Translations under genes and position numbers: made by a program
UHGV virus genome: UHGV-0178829
DNA from: a virus
Reading direction: 5' to 3' (one strand)
Length of the DNA: 12,800 nt
Part shown: positions 54 through 10,037 of the stretch, piece by piece
Position numbering within the stretch: position 1 is the stretch's first letter
Layout of the letters: each line of letters starts with the position of its first letter
The notes under the pieces: generated by a model
What the model was told of the DNA's origin: nothing
The model's input: the letters and a program-made list of their open reading frames with translations, nothing else
Database searches by the model: none

Positions 54-1735
54 GCCTCGTCCCTCCATGGTAGTCGTAACGTTATTCGGGTGTAACTATC
101 AGGCTCACAGGCGACGCTTATTCCATAGTCATCGCCAAACCGTTCACGTAAACGCTTATCCACCAGATTCATCCCCAGCCCACTGGCATTGGTTACCGGT
201 TGATACAAACCGGCATTGTCTTCGATCTCCAGCATCAAATGTTGCCCCTCACGTCGGGCGCTGATTGCCACTCGCCCTGTATCCAGCAGTTGTGATGTCC
301 CATGTTTAATGGCGTTTTCCACTATCGGTTGCAGGGTAAACGCGGGCAATTGCTGCTGGGATAATTCTTGCGGAATAGCAATGTTGACCTGCAACCGCGA
401 CTGGAAGCGCGCCTTTTCAATTTGCAGATAAGCATTCACATGTTCAATTTCGTCGGCGAGAGTAACAAACTCCGAAGGCCGCTTTAAGTTTTTGCGGAAA
501 AAAGTGGAAAGATACTGCACCAGCTGGCTGGCCTGTTCGCTGTCGCGGCGGATCACCGCTTTAATGGTGTTAAGCGCATTAAACAAAAAATGGGGATTCA
601 CCTGGGCGTGAAGCAGTTTGATCTCTGACTGGGTGAGCATCGCTTTTTGCCGCTCATATTGCCCGGCAAGGATCTGCGCCGAAAGCAATTGCGCAATCCC
701 CTCACCCAACGTGCGGTTGATTGAACTGAATAAACGGTTTTTGGCTTCATACAATTTGATGGTGCCCATCACCCGCTGATTTTCACCACGCAACGGAATT
801 ACCAGCGTCGACCCCAGTTTGCATTGCGGATGCAAAGAGCAACGGTAAGGTACTTCGTTGCCATCAGCGTAGACCACTTCACCGGTTTCAATCGCTTTTA
901 AAGTATAAGTTGAAGAAATCGGTTTGCCGGGTAAATGGTGGTCGTCACCAATTCCGGTAAAGGCCAGCAATTTCTCTCGATCGGTAATCGCGACTGCACC
1001 AATATCCAGTTCCTGATACAGCACCTGAGCCACTTTCATGCTGTTCACTTCGTTAAACCCCTGGCGCAAAATGCCTTCCGTCGAGGCTGCCACTTTCAGC
1101 GCAGTGGCAGAAAAAGCCGAAGTGTATTTTTCAAACATCGCGCGTTTATCGAGCAATATACGCATAAACAGCGCCGCGCCGACGGTATTGGTGACCATCA
1201 TTGGTGCAGCAATATTACTCACCAGACGCACCGCATCTTCATAAGGTCGGGCGATCGCAAGGATGATCAGCATTTGCACCATTTCAGCGACGAACGTGAC
1301 GGCACCGGCGGTAATGGGGTTAAAGACTTTATCAGTGCGCCCGCGGCGGATCAGGATGCTGTGTACCAGGCCACCGAGTAATCCTTCAACGATGGTCGAG
1401 ATCATGCAACTTAACGCGGTCATGCCCCCCATCGAATATCGATGTAAGCCGCCGGTCAGACCAACCAGCCCACCGACGACGGGACCGCCGAGTAAGCCGC
1501 CCATTACCGCGCCTATCGCACGGGTATTGGCAATAGAATCGTCAATGTGCAACCCAAACCAGGTGCCCATGATGCAGAAGATGGAAAAGACGATGTAGCA
1601 GAGAAATTTATGCGGCAGACGAACCGTGACCTGCATTAACGGTATGAATAATGGCGTTTTACTCATTAACCATGCAATGACTAAAAAAACGCACATCTGC
1701 TGAAGCAGCAGCAACACCAGATTAAAATCGTACAT
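50..1735 (-). CDS. btsS: LytS-type sensor histidine kinase BtsS/YehU (561 aa from the ATG at 1735; the track ORF begins 5 codons upstream at a GTG)
   Basis: Track ORF 50..1750. Translation shows multi-pass membrane N-terminus with GG-rich helices, a GAF-like middle, and a C-terminal kinase core (NPHFLFNALN H-box, ATPase motifs). Synteny with btsR immediately downstream. First ATG at 1735-1733 (MYDFNLVLLLL...) matches the remembered BtsS start. Confidence 0.9.
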   Translation of the reverse strand: MYDFNLVLLLLQQMCVFLVIAWLMSKTPLFIPLMQVTVRLPHKFLCYIVFSIFCIMGTWFGLHIDDSIANTRAIGAVMGGLLGGPVVGGLVGLTGGLHRYSMGGMTALSCMISTIVEGLLGGLVHSILIRRGRTDKVFNPITAGAVTFVAEMVQMLIILAIARPYEDAVRLVSNIAAPMMVTNTVGAALFMRILLDKRAMFEKYTSAFSATALKVAASTEGILRQGFNEVNSMKVAQVLYQELDIGAVAITDREKLLAFTGIGDDHHLPGKPISSTYTLKAIETGEVVYADGNEVPYRCSLHPQCKLGSTLVIPLRGENQRVMGTIKLYEAKNRLFSSINRTLGEGIAQLLSAQILAGQYERQKAMLTQSEIKLLHAQVNPHFLFNALNTIKAVIRRDSEQASQLVQYLSTFFRKNLKRPSEFVTLADEIEHVNAYLQIEKARFQSRLQVNIAIPQELSQQQLPAFTLQPIVENAIKHGTSQLLDTGRVAISARREGQHLMLEIEDNAGLYQPVTNASGLGMNLVDKRLRERFGDDYGISVACEPDSYTRITLRLPWRDEA

Positions 1736-1956
1736 ACCCGCAAACCACACTTCCCTTTAAAACGCGTAACATACATTGCCTGCGTTTAACTTTCTTTGAA
1801 CTCTTGCAGAAAAATGAGAATTCGTGAGTACGATCACTCAAAATCGCCTGGCAAAAATAAAATCACCCTATAGATGCACAAAAAACGGGCAAAACTACCT
1901 GGTTCGCAAAACTGCGTCTAAAGTTAAACCGGGACCTCGCGAGCAAGGGTGAGACG

Positions 1957-2025
1957 ATGGCGCTTTACACAATTGGTGAAGTGGCGTTGCTTTGTGATAT
2001 TAATCCTGTCACGTTACGCGCGTGA
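1957..2025 (+). pseudogene. mlrA: 5' fragment of mlrA/yehV (MerR-family curli regulator): 22 codons then TGA; resemblance to mlrA ends here
   Basis: ATG at 1957 encodes MALYTIGEVALLCDINPVTLRA followed by TGA at 2023-2025. This matches the remembered MlrA N-terminal HTH (MALYTIGEVALLCDINPVTLRAW...). Downstream sequence in all frames is unrelated to MlrA, and the track ORF 1949..2134 is in a different frame. Confidence 0.75.
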
Positions 2026-2148
2026 CGCAACATTTTTAAAAATCGACGAAGATCGTCCAGGAGCGCCATTTTTCAAGGGTTGGACAGATGATTCGTTTTC
2101 GATGTCGACGAACTTCGACGGATTTCGCCGATAAAAAGTGTCCCATAC

Positions 2149-2170
2149 ATGCCCCATAGATGCCCCATAG
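2149..2170. repeat. Perfect tandem direct repeat, 2 x 11 bp (ATGCCCCATAG ATGCCCCATAG), preceded by a third partial CCCATA copy (2142-2147)
   Basis: Read directly: tcccataC ATGCCCCATAG ATGCCCCATAG gcaat, about 125 bp inside the phage side of the mlrA junction. Confidence 0.6.
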
Positions 2171-2183
2171 GCAATATTACCAA

Positions 2184-2213
2184 TTGACACTGGTTATCCA
2201 CACAGCTAAAAAT
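2184..2213 (+). promoter_or_regulatory. Candidate sigma70 promoter of the dinI-like gene (TTGACA, 17 bp spacer, TAAAAA(T))
   Basis: TTGACA at 2184-2189 is a perfect -35. A 17-nt spacer is followed by the A/T-rich hexamer TAAAAA at 2207-2212. The promoter sits about 40 bp upstream of the dinI-like start and directly abuts the LexA box. Confidence 0.45.
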
Positions 2214-2218
2214 AACAC

Positions 2219-2234
2219 CTGTACATAACTACAG
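2219..2234 (+). promoter_or_regulatory. LexA (SOS) box CTGTACATAACTACAG (CTGT-N8-ACAG) over the predicted transcription start of the dinI-like gene
   Basis: Read directly. It conforms to the CTGT-N8-ACAG LexA operator pattern with an AT-rich spacer, lies just downstream of the -10, and is 15 bp upstream of ATG 2250. SD AGGAGGGGG at 2239-2247. Confidence 0.65.
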
Positions 2235-2249
2235 TTACAGGAGGGGGCT

Positions 2250-2498
2250 ATGCGTGTTGAGATCTGTATCGCTAAAGAAAAAATCAGCAAAATGCCGAAA
2301 GGTTCTGTTCCTGCTCTGCAGCAAGAAATGCTGCGCCGCATAGGTAAGCGATATGACGATGCAGATGTGATCGTTAAATCTGCCAGCAATGATGGACTCA
2401 CCATTTTAAGAGCCGTCGATAAAGAATCAGCACTGGAGTTCGTACAGGAAACACTACAGGAAGTCTGGCAAACCGCGGACGACTGGTTTATGCAATAA
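2250..2498 (+). CDS. dinI: DinI-family protein (prophage-encoded DinI homolog, 82 aa)
   Basis: Track [12 protein letters not shown]...[14 protein letters not shown] parallels E. coli DinI (MRIEVTIAK...LQETWESADDWF) in length and motifs. Strong SD, LexA box upstream, and a terminator about 90 bp downstream. Confidence 0.8.
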
Positions 2499-2589
2499 CG
2501 GGATCATAATCACTGTAATGACCTGTTTTGTATGACATTCTTAAAAGGCATAACAACGAGCTTGTCGTTTCAAGCGACTTCTTCTGGTT

Positions 2590-2616
2590 GGGGAGCCTGA
2601 GTGCTCCCCTTTTTTT
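2590..2616 (+). terminator. Rho-independent terminator downstream of the dinI-like gene; also abuts the stop of the convergent minus-strand ORF
   Basis: GGGGAGC (2590-2596), loop CTGAGT, GCTCCCC (2603-2609), then 7 T (2610-2616). On the minus strand the hairpin is preceded by an A-run and not followed by a U-run, so it is mainly a plus-strand terminator. Confidence 0.7.
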
Positions 2617-2912
2617 CAGCTAAAAATCAGCATACAGCCATACAATCCCGCACAGGCCACCACCGGCACCACAAAATCCATCAGACTGGCCACATTCCAC
2701 ACACGCGGATCAAAACCGCCCCACCACGGCATGTTCTGTCTGTGACCATCACCAAAACGCTTAATCCAGCGATATTCTGCCTGGGTATGTTCTCGGGCAA
2801 TAAAGAACGTACAACCCGCTATCGCTCCGTAAACCCAGTCACCGGTAATGCACCCGACCAGCCCCTGCACGGCTACTGCACAAATTGCATGAAGTATCGG
2901 CGTGATATCCAT
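2616..2912 (-). CDS. Hypothetical small membrane protein (98 aa, about 3 predicted transmembrane helices, Cys-rich); moron-like, function unknown
   Basis: Track ORF with ATG at 2912-2910 preceded by SD GGGGAG (TAAGGGGAGCAG-ATG). Hydrophobic stretches ITPILHAICAVAVQGLVGCIT, VYGAIAGCTFFIA and LMDFVVPVVACAGLYGCMLIF. Lies 9 nt downstream of the preceding ORF in the low-GC block. No recognisable homolog recalled. Confidence 0.6.
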   Translation of the reverse strand: MDITPILHAICAVAVQGLVGCITGDWVYGAIAGCTFFIAREHTQAEYRWIKRFGDGHRQNMPWWGGFDPRVWNVASLMDFVVPVVACAGLYGCMLIFS

Positions 2913-2921
2913 CTGCTCCCC

Positions 2922-3200
2922 TTAAAACCACCCCCTGAGCGGGCGCTCTGGTGTAACCACCCACTCACGGAACACGGATTCATCAAAGCCATCGTCAAGA
3001 AGACGAATATTAACAAAGTACCCTTCGTCTCGCGTGTATTCAGGCTCCCCGTCAGCAGAAACACCTGACTCACTGAACGTAAAACCAATCTCATCAACCA
3101 GAATGGCATTCTGCAGCTCTTCGTCCTCTTCCCAGTTAAGTTTCCTGAGAAATGCCCTGAAATCTGCTTTATCACTGAAACGCAACGTGAAATCTCTCAC
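2922..3200 (-). CDS. Hypothetical small acidic protein (92 aa), translationally coupled to the tail-fiber gene; positional candidate for a tail-fiber assembly chaperone
   Basis: Track ORF. Its only available start is GTG at 3200-3198, overlapping the tail-fiber TGA stop (GTGA); there is no in-frame ATG anywhere in the ORF. D/E-rich. It occupies the slot of P2 gpG/Tfa but does not resemble remembered gpG or lambda Tfa. Confidence 0.5.
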   Translation of the reverse strand: MRDFTLRFSDKADFRAFLRKLNWEEDEELQNAILVDEIGFTFSESGVSADGEPEYTRDEGYFVNIRLLDDGFDESVFREWVVTPERPLRGWF

Positions 3201-4987
3201 TCCACAACCTCCCCAAGCTGCGCATCTGTTAGCTCTTTATGCCAGAGACGAAAATTCCTCACATGCCCAAATAAATGGCGTAATCCTGCTGTAGTTTGTC
3301 CACCAATGCGAATGGTTGCTGTACTCCGGATATATTCCCATGTGGTTTTTGTTTCGCTGGATATACGCCCGTTACTTACTGCACATGTAGACTGATCTGA
3401 CTTTACACGCATCCCCATAACCATTTTTTTCAACGATGCGTTTTCGTTAACACGCCTATTTGATCCACCAATATCGCAATAAGGAAATCCGTCTGGCCCA
3501 TCTGCCGAAGATCCGAAGCCAAGAATAATAGCCGCTCCGGTTTGATGACCGCCGGTATCAAAAACACGTGGCGCTGCATTTGGCGTTTTATACCAGTTCT
3601 TATGTACCTCACAAAGAACCGTAAAAGGAAGATTATAAAGATTATTCTTAATTGGAACTGTAACTATATCGCTTGCGCGGGTCGCCGCCGTCGCTCCTGA
3701 TATAATAAAAGATGATACACAAGGCCCATCTTCTACTTGTGGGGTGGCCAGATAAATATAGTCACCAGATACGGTTGCCCCGCTCTGCTTAGGAGAATAC
3801 TGTATCTGAGAGCCTATTTTTAACTCCCCATCAATTGCCTGAATTGTTGCCTCTGCAAAAATCCATCCGGTAGCTTCGTCCTTTCTGACTCTCGCTGTAA
3901 TCCTTGAGGCAGCACCGCCTGTCATATTAATTTCAAGCGTTTGTGTATCAATATACGCATCACCAAGAAAAGTTGTTGCGCTACCGTCATATTTATCAAA
4001 CCGGATACGCAACCTTACCTGCAGTTCTGTTTTAAAACGACATGAGGTTGTCACGTGTTTATTATCGCCTGAGACATCAACTGACTTTGTTGCAGCAATT
4101 GATGCCATATTAATGGCTGAGGTTTGCCCAATCAGAGAATCGTTGCAGACAAACTTTCCATAGGTAAAACCAAAATTATCCGTCCCTGTTTCGGGCACAT
4201 CCATATTTGACGATCGCCCCCAACTGGCAGGGCTTTCCGAATTGAGCATGTAGTTTGTTCTTTGCCCCTCAATAAGCAGGCCATCACGTTCAAATCGTGG
4301 CTCGTCAATGGCAGCCTCTGTCAGCACACCAGATTTGTTAATATAGGTTGCTTTCGATGCACGTTTAAACTTAACAATCTTGTCGCCAGGCATCGTTATT
4401 TCATCGTCACCAATAACAATTTTTTTATATGACGGCGAAAAGCCCGTAATCATATCCAGTGAATCGTTAAACGGTATCCACACATCAGGCAGCGGCGGTA
4501 CAGACTCCTTTTCCTGCGCAACATATTCTTCAACATAGGCGCGGGTGGCGAGCACGACAGAGGGATCAACTTTCAGTTCGACAGACGAAGCACTGGAAAC
4601 CACAACAATCATGCGAATCGTCTGCGTGCGCCCGCTTCCCTCGGTGAGTACAGGCTTGTAGGTTTCGGGGCAGTTCGCCACGGCAATCATCACGCCGTCG
4701 CTGTCAAAAAGCCCAATCTCGCGGATCCAGAACCCCCCTTTATCTTCCGGGATAATCATCTCGGCGATAAGCTGGCTGGCATCAGACGCGCTGATGCTCA
4801 GTTGATTCAATGGGGCGCTGTATACCGTGTTCACCAGATTTTCCATGGAAGCCTCCGGTTCCGGCAGGCTGCCGCCGCCATCCCCCAGTTTCATGGTGGT
4901 GATGGATATTTTCGAGCCGCTGGCCACCGCCTTTGCCAGACGGGCGGCACCCTTGTCAGTCAGAACAGAAAAATATTTTACAGTCAT
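3197..4987 (-). CDS. Phage tail fiber protein (P2 gpH-like N-terminal domain; divergent C-terminal receptor-binding region ending in a LamG/concanavalin-like motif)
   Basis: Track ORF, 596 aa. N-terminal about 160 aa (MTVKYFSVLTDKGAARLA...ITTMKLGDGGG...IIPEDKGGFWIREIGLFDSDGVMIAVANCPETYKPVLTEGSGRTQTIRMIVVVSSASSVELKVDPSVVLATRAYVEEYV) aligns with remembered P2 gpH. The C-terminus ...GLRHLFGHVRNFRLWHKELTDAQL resembles the end of LamG-type jelly-roll domains. ATG at 4987 overlaps the upstream stop (ATGA). Confidence 0.85.
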   Translation of the reverse strand: MTVKYFSVLTDKGAARLAKAVASGSKISITTMKLGDGGGSLPEPEASMENLVNTVYSAPLNQLSISASDASQLIAEMIIPEDKGGFWIREIGLFDSDGVMIAVANCPETYKPVLTEGSGRTQTIRMIVVVSSASSVELKVDPSVVLATRAYVEEYVAQEKESVPPLPDVWIPFNDSLDMITGFSPSYKKIVIGDDEITMPGDKIVKFKRASKATYINKSGVLTEAAIDEPRFERDGLLIEGQRTNYMLNSESPASWGRSSNMDVPETGTDNFGFTYGKFVCNDSLIGQTSAINMASIAATKSVDVSGDNKHVTTSCRFKTELQVRLRIRFDKYDGSATTFLGDAYIDTQTLEINMTGGAASRITARVRKDEATGWIFAEATIQAIDGELKIGSQIQYSPKQSGATVSGDYIYLATPQVEDGPCVSSFIISGATAATRASDIVTVPIKNNLYNLPFTVLCEVHKNWYKTPNAAPRVFDTGGHQTGAAIILGFGSSADGPDGFPYCDIGGSNRRVNENASLKKMVMGMRVKSDQSTCAVSNGRISSETKTTWEYIRSTATIRIGGQTTAGLRHLFGHVRNFRLWHKELTDAQLGEVVE

Positions 4988-5760
4988 GAAAAAATCCTCA
5001 AAGAATCCTCCAGAAATACCACTGATGCTGTCAGGGTTCCGGTTGTGGCGGTCAGTTGCATCACCGCCTGTGGCTCCACGGTCACCGCATCATCGCCCGT
5101 AACCTGTAATCCCATGACAATCCCCGCATCGACAGATACCGACGGTGTCGGCGGGTAAATGGTGAGCATGTCGCCGTCAAAGAAAGCCGGAGATGCCCGG
5201 AACACCGAAACAGTCTCAACACCGGCAGAAGCGGCTGGCCAGATTGTTGTTTCACTGCCGTCGTGCATGCCGGAAAACACACGTGCGACTCCCTGCGTAT
5301 CCAGCATAATGTTCAGCGAGGCAAGGTGGCGGCTGACCGGACGGGCATCGTCGATCAGTCGTGTCAGCTCGGAGTACGTTTCCTCTGTGATACCCGCGTC
5401 CTGCACGCCAATATCAATGCGGAACGTGCCGCGCGGGTCGCCGTTCTGCCACCACTCCGTCACGTTAATGACATAGCCAAAGGGTTCAACCACACGCCTG
5501 ATGGCGCTGATGGTTCCCTTATGGCGGTGGATTGCCCAGGCATCACGGATCACCTGGCGCTTTGTTTCTTCCGTCCAGTCACGATCCCACCTGTCCACGG
5601 ACAGCGCCCACGCCAGATAAGGCAGCAGGGCTGCCGGGCAGGTGTCAGGATCCCAGAGCTGGTTAAGGCTGACAGGTAATGCTGACAACCGGGCGGTTCC
5701 CCGCTCCACGCAGCGCATGAAATCGCTGGCTGAAGGGGGGAGAAGTGACGGTTCACTCAT
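4984..5760 (-). CDS. Baseplate assembly protein (P2 gpI homolog) with a C-terminal extension of about 80 aa
   Basis: From the internal ATG at 5760: MSEPSLLPP...LWDPDTCPAALLPYLAWALSVDRWDRDW...KGTISAIRRVVEPFGYVINVTEWWQNGDPRGTFRIDIGV matches remembered P2 gpI (…LWNPDTCPANLLPWLAWAFSVDRWDEKW…). The track ORF extends to 5823 but that would overlap the J homolog by 70 nt. Confidence 0.85.
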   Translation of the reverse strand: MSEPSLLPPSASDFMRCVERGTARLSALPVSLNQLWDPDTCPAALLPYLAWALSVDRWDRDWTEETKRQVIRDAWAIHRHKGTISAIRRVVEPFGYVINVTEWWQNGDPRGTFRIDIGVQDAGITEETYSELTRLIDDARPVSRHLASLNIMLDTQGVARVFSGMHDGSETTIWPAASAGVETVSVFRASPAFFDGDMLTIYPPTPSVSVDAGIVMGLQVTGDDAVTVEPQAVMQLTATTGTLTASVVFLEDSLRIFS

Positions 5761-6649
5761 TGGTTCCCCCTGTGCTGACCGTGAACGATGTGCAGTACGC
5801 TGACTGCACATCACTGATAACAATATTCTGTGCGGGGCTGGTCAGTTCCACGCGCTGAACGCCCTGAACATGCAGTGCGGCCATGATGGCGGAGAGCGCG
5901 ACATCGCGACCGATTTTGCCCTGTTCGGCAAGCCAGGTTTCCAGATTGTTTCTGGCGGCATTCAGGATGGGTTCCGACTCCGGCCCCGGATAAAAGTAAA
6001 GCCGGGCATCAATCTGATACCGTATGATTTCTGCGCTCTGCACCGTCAGACGGTCACCGACCGGGCGAACGTCTTCGGCATTCAGCGCATTTCTGACCGT
6101 TGTCAGGAGTTCTTCGGTCGCCGTGCCGTCGCCTTCTGTGGACAACACTGTCACCACCACTTCCGCCGGTGCGGGGCTGGTTGCGCGCGCGTCCGCCACC
6201 TGACCGCTGGCACTGCGGGCAAAATATTCATACGCCCCGGTGGGACCGGCCACGCTGAGGCCATCAAATGCAGACTGCGCACGCAGCCGCAGGGCGGAGT
6301 CGCTTTCCATGACGGCCTCCGTGGTGTCCATGGCCGGTGTGATGACCAGCCGCGCGGTGTTCATGTTGGCAGCGAGGTTGTCCAGGTCATCACCTGTGGA
6401 ATGGCTCAGCATACAGGCCGCTGCGCCCTCATTAATGCGCTGGCGAAGCAGCAGTTCACGCAGCGCGAAAGCCTGGGCAATGACCGTGAGCGGTTCGGAC
6501 TCCAACGCCATGGCTGACCGGATGGCAGCCTGCTGTGTCTGTGGAAATGACGTAATGATGTCTTCTTTCACTTCCGCTAGGATGACTTCAAAATCCGGCG
6601 TTTCAATAATCTGTGGTGTCGGCAGTTCCGACAGGTCAACGGCTGGCAT
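5753..6649 (-). CDS. Baseplate assembly protein J (P2 gpJ homolog)
   Basis: Track ORF, 298 aa. MPAVDLSELPTPQ...VRNALNAEDVRPVGDRLTVQSAEII...LHVQGVQRVELTSP closely parallels remembered P2 gpJ along its whole length. Confidence 0.9.
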   Translation of the reverse strand: MPAVDLSELPTPQIIETPDFEVILAEVKEDIITSFPQTQQAAIRSAMALESEPLTVIAQAFALRELLLRQRINEGAAACMLSHSTGDDLDNLAANMNTARLVITPAMDTTEAVMESDSALRLRAQSAFDGLSVAGPTGAYEYFARSASGQVADARATSPAPAEVVVTVLSTEGDGTATEELLTTVRNALNAEDVRPVGDRLTVQSAEIIRYQIDARLYFYPGPESEPILNAARNNLETWLAEQGKIGRDVALSAIMAALHVQGVQRVELTSPAQNIVISDVQSAYCTSFTVSTGGTNE

Positions 6650-7001
6650 TGTCGCTCCTGAGTGTCAGTGTGTTCTGTACGGTTTCCAGGCTTTCTGTCA
6701 GTGTGCCGGTGAGGGTGATAACGGCTTTTCCGCCCGCCTCCCACTGAATGTCAACGGCATTCAGGGCGATGCGTGGCTCCCACTGTGTCAGGGCAATCAC
6801 CACGGCGCTCATGCACTGAAGGCGCGTGGTGGCATTCATCGGTGCATCCAGCAAATCCGGCAGCAGGCTGCCGTATTCCCGGCGCATCACCCGGCTGGCG
6901 AGCGGTGTTAACAGAATATCCCTCACGCTGTTCCACAGATGGTCCGTGTCGCTGAGCGTGCCGGTGGCCTCGGGGTTCATCCCCAGAAAACGGGCACTCA
7001 C
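6636..7001 (-). CDS. Baseplate wedge protein W (P2 gpW / gp25-like); GTG start
   Basis: Track ORF, 121 aa. (M)SARFLGMNPEATG...LTPLASRVMRREYGSLLPDLLD...WEPRI...VITLTG matches remembered gpW (MTARYLGMN...TPVGSRVMRRDYGSLL...). GTG at 7001-6999 overlaps the V stop (GTGA). Confidence 0.85.
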   Translation of the reverse strand: MSARFLGMNPEATGTLSDTDHLWNSVRDILLTPLASRVMRREYGSLLPDLLDAPMNATTRLQCMSAVVIALTQWEPRIALNAVDIQWEAGGKAVITLTGTLTESLETVQNTLTLRSDNASR

Positions 7002-8686: not shown

Positions 8687-8980
8687 TTACGGTCGCATCC
8701 GGCGTTGTTGTTCGGTTGCTTTAATGGCTGCCTTGTCAGCGTTGCAGCTCTCCAGTGCGTCCAGCAGCCGGTCACTCCAGACGGCCAGTCCGCCCCACGT
8801 CAGCGGACGGGGCAGGGACGGCACCGGCGTTGGCTGTGTCAGACTTTCCGGCAGCGGTGCGTGCTGCGTCTGAGTGACCACGACGGGGCGCGGCGCGCTG
8901 TTGCAGGCGGTCAGCAACAGCGGCAGGCACAGCAGCAGCCGCGCACGGATTTTCCCGGAGTGTGTTGCGTATCTCTTCAC
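8687..8980 (-). CDS. o-spanin (Rz1/LysC-like outer-membrane lipoprotein), out of frame with and overlapping the 3' part of the i-spanin gene; proposed GTG start
   Basis: Within track ORF 8687..9133: ...KRYATHSGKIRARLLLCLPLLLTAC-NSAPRPVVVTQTQHAPLPESLTQPTPVPSLPRP... has a basic n-region, hydrophobic core, lipobox LTAC and a Pro-rich mature part. In-frame GTG at 8980-8978 is preceded by AGGAGGGAG. The upstream ATGs would give an implausibly long signal peptide. Confidence 0.55.
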   Translation of the reverse strand: MKRYATHSGKIRARLLLCLPLLLTACNSAPRPVVVTQTQHAPLPESLTQPTPVPSLPRPLTWGGLAVWSDRLLDALESCNADKAAIKATEQQRRMRP

Positions 8981-9218
8981 GGCGTTTTTCTCCCTCCTGA
9001 TTCCGGTGCTGCTCTGCGGCGCGGACCTGCGCCAGCAGGTCGCTGATGCCCCGGAGTTCCGCATGAAGTGCATCCACGGCGGCATTTGTTCCCGCCAGCG
9101 CCTGTTCGTGATATTCCCGGCGCGCCCGTTCATGCCCTGCCTGCCAGGCCAGACGCAGTGACACCAGATACAGCGCCCCCGAAAACAGGGCGACGACGGC
9201 GGCGGTGGTCAGCCTCAT
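8772..9218 (-). CDS. i-spanin (Rz/LysB-like; N-terminal TM anchor plus periplasmic coiled coil)
   Basis: Within track ORF 8772..9245, from ATG at 9218 (GGAG SD): MRLTTAAVVALFSGALYLVSLRLAWQ... then a charged helical region rich in A, R, E and Q. The ATG overlaps the lysozyme stop (ATGA). The o-spanin gene overlaps its 3' end, as with P2 lysB/lysC. Confidence 0.7.
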   Translation of the reverse strand: MRLTTAAVVALFSGALYLVSLRLAWQAGHERARREYHEQALAGTNAAVDALHAELRGISDLLAQVRAAEQHRNQEGEKRREEIRNTLRENPCAAAAVPAAVADRLQQRAAPRRGHSDAARTAAGKSDTANAGAVPAPSADVGRTGRLE

Positions 9219-9757
9219 TTCTGTTTCTCCACATCCCGCAGACACCAGGCGCGAAAATCGCTGCGGCGGTTAACCAGTCCCTGACTGCGCTTCCCGCCTG
9301 CATTCACAAAATCAGTGAGGCGGGCACACATCCGCGCCCAGTTATGCGCCTGTGCCTGTTTCCAGATGGTGGTGCGCTGGCGCTTACCGTTGCGGTCCCT
9401 GAACCACATCAGACCGGAGCACCCCAGATTGAAGGCTGCATCCGTCATCGCCTCGAAGGCCGACTGCGGCATGGCTGCCCCCTGAAAATTCTGGTTAATA
9501 CAGCTCTCCGCCCGCTGCATGTCATTCACCCAGCGACGGGCCACCTCCTGCTCGCTGTACAGGTGTTTCTGTACGTTCCCCGTGGAGCCGCAGCCCACGG
9601 TGGCAACACCCGCGATGTCCGTGTAGGGTGTGGCGCGGCAGTCTTCCCACGTGGCAATTTTTATCTGTGCCTCCTGTGAGGTGCGCAGTGCTTCAGGAGC
9701 CAGCGAGACACCCAGCGCCACAATCACGGCGGCGGCATATCGCTTAATGTTTTTCAT
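9215..9757 (-). CDS. Phage lysozyme (GH24, T4/P21-type endolysin) with an N-terminal hydrophobic segment (signal peptide or SAR domain)
   Basis: Within track ORF 9215..9841, from ATG at 9757: MKNIKRYAAAVIVALGVSLAPEAL... then WEDCRATPYTDIAGVATVGCGSTG (E-D-T catalytic pattern) and ...FVNAGGKRSQGLVNRRSDFRAWC, which parallel remembered P21 R21 lysozyme motifs. Confidence 0.8.
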   Translation of the reverse strand: MKNIKRYAAAVIVALGVSLAPEALRTSQEAQIKIATWEDCRATPYTDIAGVATVGCGSTGNVQKHLYSEQEVARRWVNDMQRAESCINQNFQGAAMPQSAFEAMTDAAFNLGCSGLMWFRDRNGKRQRTTIWKQAQAHNWARMCARLTDFVNAGGKRSQGLVNRRSDFRAWCLRDVEKQK

Positions 9758-10037
9758 CGTTATCCCGTTGCAGTGCGGCAAGCGCCCGTTGTTCACTTTC
9801 ATGAAGCCCGCGCGTTCCGGCCTGTGCCAGAATCTGTGCAATCAGCGCATTGCGGCGGACCTGCGCACGCTCCATGCGGCGACGGTGAAGCCAGCCCTGA
9901 AAGAGTGAAAGCGCACCCAGCAGCAGCCCGGCCAGCGCGATTTTTTCGCTGATGGTCATCGCGCCAATCGTGACCGCAGAGACGGAGGCGGCGAAGGCGA
10001 TGTGGTCGTAAATACTGCGAAAAAAACCTAATCCCAT
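9744..10037 (-). CDS. Putative holin (about 97 aa, two TM segments, charged C-terminal tail; pinholin-like topology)
   Basis: Within track ORF 9744..10187, from ATG at 10037 (the upstream part would overlap the gpX homolog): MGLGFFRSIYDHIAFAASVSAVTIGAMTISEKIALAGLLLGALSLFQGWLHRRRMERAQVRR.... It sits immediately upstream of, and overlaps by 14 nt, the lysozyme gene. Confidence 0.5.
   Translation of the reverse strand: MGLGFFRSIYDHIAFAASVSAVTIGAMTISEKIALAGLLLGALSLFQGWLHRRRMERAQVRRNALIAQILAQAGTRGLHESEQRALAALQRDNDEKH

Follow-up and report, generated by a model that had tools for sequence, protein, structure and literature searches.

Comparative genomics of two small genes at the end of a prophage tail-fibre operon: a candidate fibre-tip partner and a widespread predicted membrane protein

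Introduction

Fibre swaps for the engineering of phage host range fail if a required chaperone is left behind. Such helpers—Tfa, P2 gpG and Mu gpU (Caudo_TAP), as well as T4 gp38—are encoded directly after the fibre gene, are co-translated with it and move horizontally together with the C-terminal receptor-binding module, whose tip they help to fold, possibly staying bound. Here, we describe two adjacent small genes that close the tail-fibre operon in a stretch of 12,800 nucleotides (nt) of virus genome UHGV-0178829 (hereafter, the window). The first of them, which encodes an acidic protein of 92 amino acids (aa), shares the position directly behind the fibre gene, the predicted co-translation and the mobility with the receptor-binding module, and help with tip folding would likewise be expected of its product; unlike Tfa, gpG and gpU, however, the 92-aa protein fails both the sequence and the fold test for that family. 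A conceptual parallel is provided by the transient chaperone 'caps' on the fibre tips of Alteromonas phages (Gonzalez-Serrano et al. 2023, as cited in PMC11990801), which, as that citing paper presents them, are products of a small fibre-adjacent gene that mask the tip until release. An acidic protein with a protein-binding-type fold would fit such a role, the two being likened by concept, not homology.

The second gene encodes a 98-aa protein with three predicted membrane helices. It resembles, in size and location only, superinfection-exclusion proteins of the inner membrane from temperate as well as virulent phages (P22 SieA, T4 Imm, HK97 gp15) and the products of exclusion genes that end late operons (phi80/N15 cor, T5 llp); these are small accessory membrane proteins, often encoded beside receptor-binding genes, that virion assembly can do without. 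Among them, Cor and Llp belong to the outer-membrane lipoproteins. The 98-aa protein differs from these exclusion proteins in that it matches none of their kind in Pfam, PHROG or PADLOC, has chromosomal homologues and carries a near-invariant polar motif predicted to face the cytoplasm. With class I holins and the PF16931 family it has in common a length of ~100 aa and three hydrophobic helices; it differs from them by a sub-threshold match confined to the helices, the conserved motif, another genomic position and a predicted topology that runs opposite to theirs. Its gene occupies the same place as the P2 Z/fun genes and the lambdoid lom, bor and cor genes (after H-G in the P2 order and where the lambdoid late operon ends, respectively), yet unlike those it is conserved, with variable cargo only downstream of it.

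These are real, ordinary-looking accessory genes for which comparative genomics yields specific hypotheses. Our analysis slightly favors two independent genes at the 3′ end of the operon, one specifying a partner of the fibre tip, the other a membrane protein acting on an inner-membrane process. They would be neighbors because the former is tied to this particular fibre tip and the latter to the ends of fibre operons in temperate phages.

Results

Both genes are conserved and under selection

The original prediction, made from the sequence alone, placed two open reading frames (ORFs) at positions 2616–3200, and both are found exactly there on the minus strand (Table 1). That prediction would have fallen had one or both turned out to lack conservation and not to be real genes; profile matches, homologs and substitution patterns all speak against this. 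The 92-aa protein matches phrog_1361 over its full length (E 4.7e-39, residues 1–92 against profile positions 1–92 of 92), the 98-aa protein matches phrog_1443 (E 1.9e-48, residues 1–91 against positions 1–91 of 97), and homologs number 314 and 538, respectively. In both genes synonymous differences far outweigh non-synonymous ones (pS 0.47–0.88 versus pN 0.14–0.46); for the 92-aa gene synonymous sites are saturated, with a pN of 0.25–0.41. By these sequence comparisons both ORFs are real genes, kept under purifying selection, and AlphaFold models both proteins with confidence.

PHROGs, pVOGs and RefSeq already list the two families as function-unknown, and profile searches of the sequences in PDB gave no match. 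PHROG 1361 corresponds to pVOG7707, again function-unknown, and phage records label the homologs VOG7707. A literature search covering BASEL, DT57C, AKFV33, rV5, lambdoid exclusion and the PHROG/VOG identifiers retrieved no paper on either family. A publication on the small RNA svsR proved unrelated to both genes: svsR lies within cI.

The 92-aa gene accompanies one type of fibre tip

The start of the 92-aa gene reads as originally proposed, with a GTGA overlap to the fibre gene, a GTG start and no ATG. Plus-strand positions 3197–3200 are tcac and read GTGA on the coding strand, where 3200–3198 form the GTG start and 3199–3197 the TGA stop of the fibre gene. There is no in-frame ATG anywhere in the reading frame, and a GGGGAGG Shine–Dalgarno sequence stands 7 nt 5′ of the GTG. 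Nine homologs share the aligned start residue (MKD/MRD...), which is encoded by ATG in seven and by GTG in two, namely in this window and in phage rolling; because the homologs begin at the same aligned residue, the GTG start is confirmed. Sampled homologous genes adjoin the fibre gene's end or overlap it in like manner, most of them with an ATG start. At the other end of the gene, the TAA stop at 2922–2924 is followed by the 9-nt spacer ggggagcag, which contains the GGGGAG Shine–Dalgarno sequence, and then by the ATG of the 98-aa gene at 2912.

The fibre itself is a composite. Residues 1–149 match PF12571 (E 7.5e-57), residues 148–595 match phrog_1419 (E 6.6e-235) and residues 238–438 match NF048003 (GTA_spike_fiber). 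The C-terminal ~450 aa are 45–85% identical to the fibres of six unrelated phages, the N-terminal anchors of which differ. In Gp22 of phage IrisVonRoten, the homologous tip has been described as a galectin-like domain and a possible additional receptor-binding domain (PMC11990801), and a fibre homolog in AKFV33 has been confirmed as a virion protein (AKFV33 study). In the BASEL paper, the proximal fibre is called Gp22 at one point but Gp23 elsewhere (PMC11990801). IrisVonRoten Gp23 (bas32_0023, annotated 'tail fiber protein'; locus L094, positions 4468–4746) is a homolog of the 92-aa protein, whose role in the modelled fibre complex is undiscussed there (PMC11990801).

Tip and small protein occur together almost one to one. 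A tblastn search recovers the 92-aa family from 189 phage records and the fibre's last 157 aa from 205, with closely matching breakdowns by organism (small protein/tip: Escherichia 153/164, Salmonella 15/17, 'Campylobacter' 8/8). Wherever coordinates were available for both members of a pair, the small gene begins at the end of the fibre gene (e.g., in PhiR40_1, VSe12, JenP2, T5_ev219, EC142 and phage 21). This arrangement spans seven lineages—lambdoid, P2-like, Seuratvirus, Vequintavirus, Tequintavirus, Drexlerviridae and Dhillonvirus, exemplified in this order by phage 21, the P2-like prophage of strain SCU-172, VogelGryff, nimi, KookSpook and IrisVonRoten, tinuso, and rolling—and in all seven the preceding fibre carries the same C-terminal ~450-aa module. 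The Seuratvirus homolog, VogelGryff bas25_0023, is 43% identical to the protein encoded in the window, and a DNA search recovered the window's own allele from 365 Escherichia coli genomes. A function restricted to lysogeny is ruled out because most carrier lineages are virulent. Phage records labelled 'Campylobacter' or Listeria (MG065692, MG065676, MG065666, OR848352) bear this coliphage fibre cassette and are probably mislabelled or contaminated.

With an isoelectric point of 4.28 and 22 Asp and Glu against 11 Lys and Arg residues, the 92-aa protein is as acidic as predicted. Its AlphaFold model (pLDDT, the predicted score in the local distance difference test, 85.3) has the order beta-alpha-alpha-beta-beta-alpha. 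The original prediction had seen no likeness to the P2 gpG or lambda Tfa chaperones, and our searches agree: at E ≤ 1, Pfam returned only chance-level hits to SARAH, UL42 and DUF5734, with none to Tfa/gpG/gpU, Caudo_TAP or DUF4376; the NCBIfam scan gave no match; the model showed no fold similarity to the solved Tfa, gpG and gpU chaperone structures; and Foldseek against viral structures found uncharacterised proteins only.

Taken together, a fibre-linked function appears highly likely for the 92-aa protein, with a chaperone or cap favored over an adaptor, and the protein probably serves the fibre's C-terminal module as a dedicated accessory. Translationally coupled to the fibre stop codon, this small alpha/beta protein would help the lectin-like tip to fold or trimerise, or would stay bound to it as a cap—we infer both activities—thereby acting in the manner of Tfa, gpG and gpU without belonging to their family. 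Several observations weigh against so specific a role. In phage 21 the tip is 43.8% identical and the small protein 62%, and in swan01 the tip is the better conserved of the two (tip 82.1%, small protein 46.2%). The divergence of the small protein hence does not track that of the tip, which means that recombination separates the two and that any interaction between them would have to rely on conserved features. Moreover, several phages encode a second fibre protein after the small gene, a gene order as compatible with an adaptor as with a chaperone. Binding to the fibre tip, or its assembly, is a candidate role. If the 92-aa protein were indeed an obligate partner of the tip, it would represent a new chaperone or cap family and would have to travel with the tip in engineered phages.

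The 98-aa gene closes fibre operons of temperate phages

The 98-aa protein contains five cysteines and three hydrophobic segments, and its AlphaFold model (pLDDT 92.9) consists of helices at residues 4–23, 26–53 and 74–97, bearing out the prediction of a Cys-rich, roughly three-helix membrane protein. The family is moderately large, with 538 close homologs and 438 clusters at 50% identity, all of standalone proteins of ~60–146 aa. Among 99 diverse members, R40, E41 and W72 are invariant (99/99), and H8, E46 and P83 (97 each), Q44 (95) and A45 (94) are nearly so. Averaged over the same members, the loop 40–73 holds 5.35 Lys and Arg residues, as compared with 0.07 in the loop 24–25, 0.65 at the N-terminus and 0.41 at the C-terminus; on the positive-inside rule, this distribution predicts an inner-membrane protein of N-in/C-out orientation with the conserved loop and motif facing the cytoplasm. 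A fold search with the model returned generic helical bundles only, and the NCBIfam scan no match.

In phages, the gene is found after lambdoid side tail fibres, in a P2-like prophage as well as an HP1-like prophage whose fibre has an S74-chaperone domain, after a Uetakevirus fibre, in a Lederbergvirus conversion locus beside OafA and the integrase, after the fibre-assembly gene of phiHAP-1 (Hapunavirus) and, in a metagenomic phage, flanked by a DUF4376/DUF7338 fibre module and the holin. The upstream proteins range from S74-chaperone, Tfa and DUF4376 fibres to tailspikes, and the upstream stop codon is often overlapped by the 98-aa gene. At all five sampled E. coli sites it closes the fibre operon, with variable cargo thereafter: an ATP-dependent nuclease, sitABCD, a methyltransferase, VapA/VapB-family and YkgJ-family genes, or hypotheticals near a TacA antitoxin gene. 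The original idea that a cargo hotspot lies just past the fibre genes is therefore upheld as to the position of the 98-aa gene and needs amending as to its content, since the variable cargo starts downstream of this gene, itself the conserved last member of the fibre operon. By contrast with these temperate phages, six of six inspected virulent-phage loci with the same fibre cassette lack the gene. Among 5426 complete E. coli genomes, 1921 carry it, in 3967 places and in up to seven copies per genome, always as a 'hypothetical protein'.

The family extends to cellular chromosomes. Five Aeromonas loci (L012, L031, L034, L040 and L042) share a syntenic slot composed of pirin, the 98-aa gene, a convergent kinase-like (RIO1) gene and two lipid A acyltransferase genes; we did not use the acyltransferase neighborhood as a functional clue, as it is convergent and limited to one clade. 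In Alphaproteobacteria, copies stand beside housekeeping genes (LigA, FtsZ, ThiC, penicillin-binding proteins). No recurrent partner of the family emerged from 54 species-level loci and 143 ORFs around the alphaproteobacterial copies.

A few loci deserve separate mention. In phage 21 (locus L001, positions 1–2876) and strain AVS0968 (L096, 1–2876), sitABCD lies directly beyond the 98-aa gene. Other lambdoid prophages of enterobacteria (L018–L025) regularly have conserved ORFs of 79 aa and 105–111 aa, without Pfam match, after the 98-aa homolog; the window lacks both. Phage vB_EcoP-611R6 (L009, 3345–3458) retains a 37-aa coiled-coil remnant annotated 'tail fiber protein' just 5′ of its 98-aa homolog, between the OafA O-acetylase and integrase genes, and this remnant suggests that the 98-aa gene came in along with the 3′ end of a fibre gene. 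Near-E. coli copies stand on contigs labelled Collinsella or Desulfovibrio piger (L028, L059, L061), which are probably mislabelled or contaminated.

We consider the 98-aa protein very probably non-structural cargo. It may represent a proteobacterial cellular family captured by temperate phages, which would retain it as the last gene of their receptor-binding-protein operon. The predicted place of its conserved surface—H8, the R40-E41-x-x-Q44-A45-E46 face and the W72 loop—is the cytoplasmic membrane interface. Unneeded for fibre building, the protein would alter an inner-membrane process, perhaps by blocking DNA entry of superinfecting phages or by acting on the handling of envelope precursors. 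Exclusion or envelope modification in particular, though the likeliest role, is a tentative possibility, suggested by position and analogy. Against it speak the translational coupling to the fibre genes, which suggests late lytic rather than prophage expression; a simple promoter scan that found no sigma-70-like promoter directly upstream; a search of PADLOC-DB v2 with both proteins (E ≤ 1) that matched no defence family; and Pfam and PHROG searches that yielded no exclusion family, with only phrog_1443 and phrog_34165 (both function-unknown) and a weak holin family retrieved. Likewise, the conserved polar motif and the cellular homologs could point to an enzymatic or housekeeping role unrelated to exclusion.

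The gene is among the commonest unannotated genes of E. coli prophages. A generic exclusion or conversion function, if true, would be present in ~35% of E. coli genomes; learning whether the role lies in exclusion or in the envelope would annotate thousands of 'hypothetical protein' entries and explain why the gene is retained in five temperate architectures.

Alternative roles and the independence of the two genes

Rather than assisting its assembly, the 92-aa protein might be a structural component of the virion, an adaptor by which a distal fibre or branch is attached to the proximal fibre's lectin-like end. The distal fibre does attach to the proximal one (PMC11990801), and the Tequintavirus gene order—proximal fibre, small gene, distal T-shaped fibre—would suit such a joint, as would the second 'tail fiber domain' protein, or other protein, encoded after the small gene in NCTC86, plasmid Esc24, VogelGryff and tinuso, and the label 'tail fiber protein' in the IrisVonRoten record. 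However, the small gene is also present without a distal fibre gene behind it in the window, phage 21, VR50, SCU-172, KE21 and others, and virion proteomics did not detect the protein, the AKFV33 study having covered only four gel bands. On this evidence an adaptor appears doubtful, and we prefer a chaperone or cap. A part in fibre or tail assembly or function has to be considered for the 98-aa protein, too, for instance as a membrane-anchored assembly factor: its gene overlaps or abuts the stop of fibre or fibre-assembly genes in many phages, and in phiHAP-1 it is lodged between fibre-assembly and sheath genes. Yet all six virulent-phage loci do without it, at least four unrelated fibre or spike types are associated with it, its conserved loop is predicted to face the cytoplasm, and a stable chromosomal gene without phage neighbors exists, so that this role is very improbable.

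Hardly more probable is a lysis protein, be it a holin, an antiholin or a lysis-timing factor. The size and the three hydrophobic helices would be appropriate, weak matches were obtained to PF16931 (Phage_holin_8; E 0.003, 18.1 bits) and to the holin family phrog_198 (E 0.042), and in two of the sampled contexts the gene is close upstream of a holin, namely two genes upstream of the holin-endolysin cassette in a Uetakevirus and directly upstream in one metagenomic phage. But the PF16931 score falls short of the 26.4-bit cutoff, covers only hydrophobic helices and recurs in merely 2/99 family members, and we rejected this identity as chance. A long distance parts the gene from the lysis cassette in lambdoid and P2-like phages; in the window, the lysozyme and Rz/Rz1-like ORFs (~8687–9841, from the ORF list and the annotation of the SCU-172 prophage) are ~6 kilobases away. 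A near-invariant polar motif and chromosomal homologs among housekeeping genes are likewise unlike holins. Lambda-type class I holins have a topology opposite to the N-in/C-out orientation predicted here. There remains the proposal that both genes form one module, such as a toxin-immunity pair or a two-component defence. Their 9-nt spacing, and their joint retention in many lambdoid and some P2-like prophages, would agree with an obligate pair. The distribution largely refutes it: the 92-aa family is found in 189 phage records, and the inspected virulent loci have it without the 98-aa gene; the 98-aa family is found in 1921 E. coli genomes as against 365 with this 92-aa allele by DNA search, also behind S74, Tfa and DUF4376 fibres and at non-phage sites; a third gene sometimes intervenes; and PADLOC matched neither protein. 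Since each gene thus occurs without the other, the two-gene module of the original prediction is abandoned and an obligate pair is extremely improbable. The other suggestion of that prediction, a fibre chaperone plus an exclusion, defence or envelope-modifying membrane protein, is supported in part: the small protein is fibre-linked, and the 98-aa gene, at a cargo position, encodes a three-helix membrane protein.

A bolder version of the independent-genes reading would have the 92-aa protein found a new class of chaperones or caps for lectin-like tips in at least seven coliphage lineages, including BASEL phages, and would see in the 98-aa protein a captured cellular membrane protein with a catalytic-looking H/RE/QAE site, deployed by temperate phages from the fibre operon's end to remodel an inner-membrane step such as DNA entry or the handling of lipid carriers and envelope precursors. 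We regard this combination as unlikely to hold in full.

Setting of the two genes within the prophage

The features of the locus are compiled in Table 1.

Table 1 Coordinates of the two small genes, their signals and the surrounding features in the window
Feature	Position	Strand	Basis or remark
98-aa ORF	2616–2912	minus	ORF list and sequence
92-aa ORF	2922–3200	minus	ORF list and sequence
Tail-fibre gene, 596 aa	3197–4987	minus	P2-type N-terminal anchor aa 1–149; C-terminal module aa ~147–596
GTGA stop/start overlap of fibre TGA and 92-aa GTG	3197–3200	minus	read from sequence
Shine–Dalgarno GGGGAGG of 92-aa gene, within fibre gene	3208–3214	minus	read from sequence
Shine–Dalgarno GGGGAG of 98-aa gene	2916–2921	minus	read from sequence
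Convergent terminator region, fibre operon/DinI-like gene	2560–2609		terminator-pattern scan, consensus matches only
DinI-like gene	2250–2498	plus	PF06183, E 6.7e-17
Host/prophage junction within mlrA (yehV)	2024/2025		alignment to K-12

Positions 1–2024 of the window are 99.85% identical to K-12, from btsS to nt 68 of mlrA (yehV), and the alignment then ends; because the K-12 match stops there, 68 nt into mlrA, we place the prophage junction at this point. Between the junction and the 98-aa gene, the DinI-like gene is the only cargo, with a promoter-like site at 2184–2213 and a strong terminator at 2590–2609. Terminator-like hairpins at 2560–2578, with a minus-strand hairpin at 2575–2560, and at 2590–2609, the GC-rich plus-strand hairpin with its T-run, part the fibre operon from the DinI-like gene. 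Rfam and transfer RNA scans of the window came back empty.

This end of the prophage is a mosaic. In strain VR50 the same site holds a lambdoid prophage whose genes run J, lom, stf, 92-aa gene, 98-aa gene, DinI, and positions 1700–3650 of the window are ~100% identical to its end. Positions 4500–7000 match, at ~100% identity, a P2-like prophage at another place in strain SCU-172. The intervening segment (3700–4500) is only 58–86% identical to VR50 and SCU-172 and constitutes a third allele, with breakpoints at ~3650 and ~4500. None of the complete E. coli genomes of the collection contains this join of lambdoid and P2-like sequence; it may be a recombinant or inversion between prophages that arose via the fibre module common to both, or else a chimera of the assembly. 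Diverged 92-aa and 97-aa genes of its own stand behind the fibre gene of the P2-like prophage in SCU-172, and because of these copies the pair can be regarded as native to P2-like phages as well.

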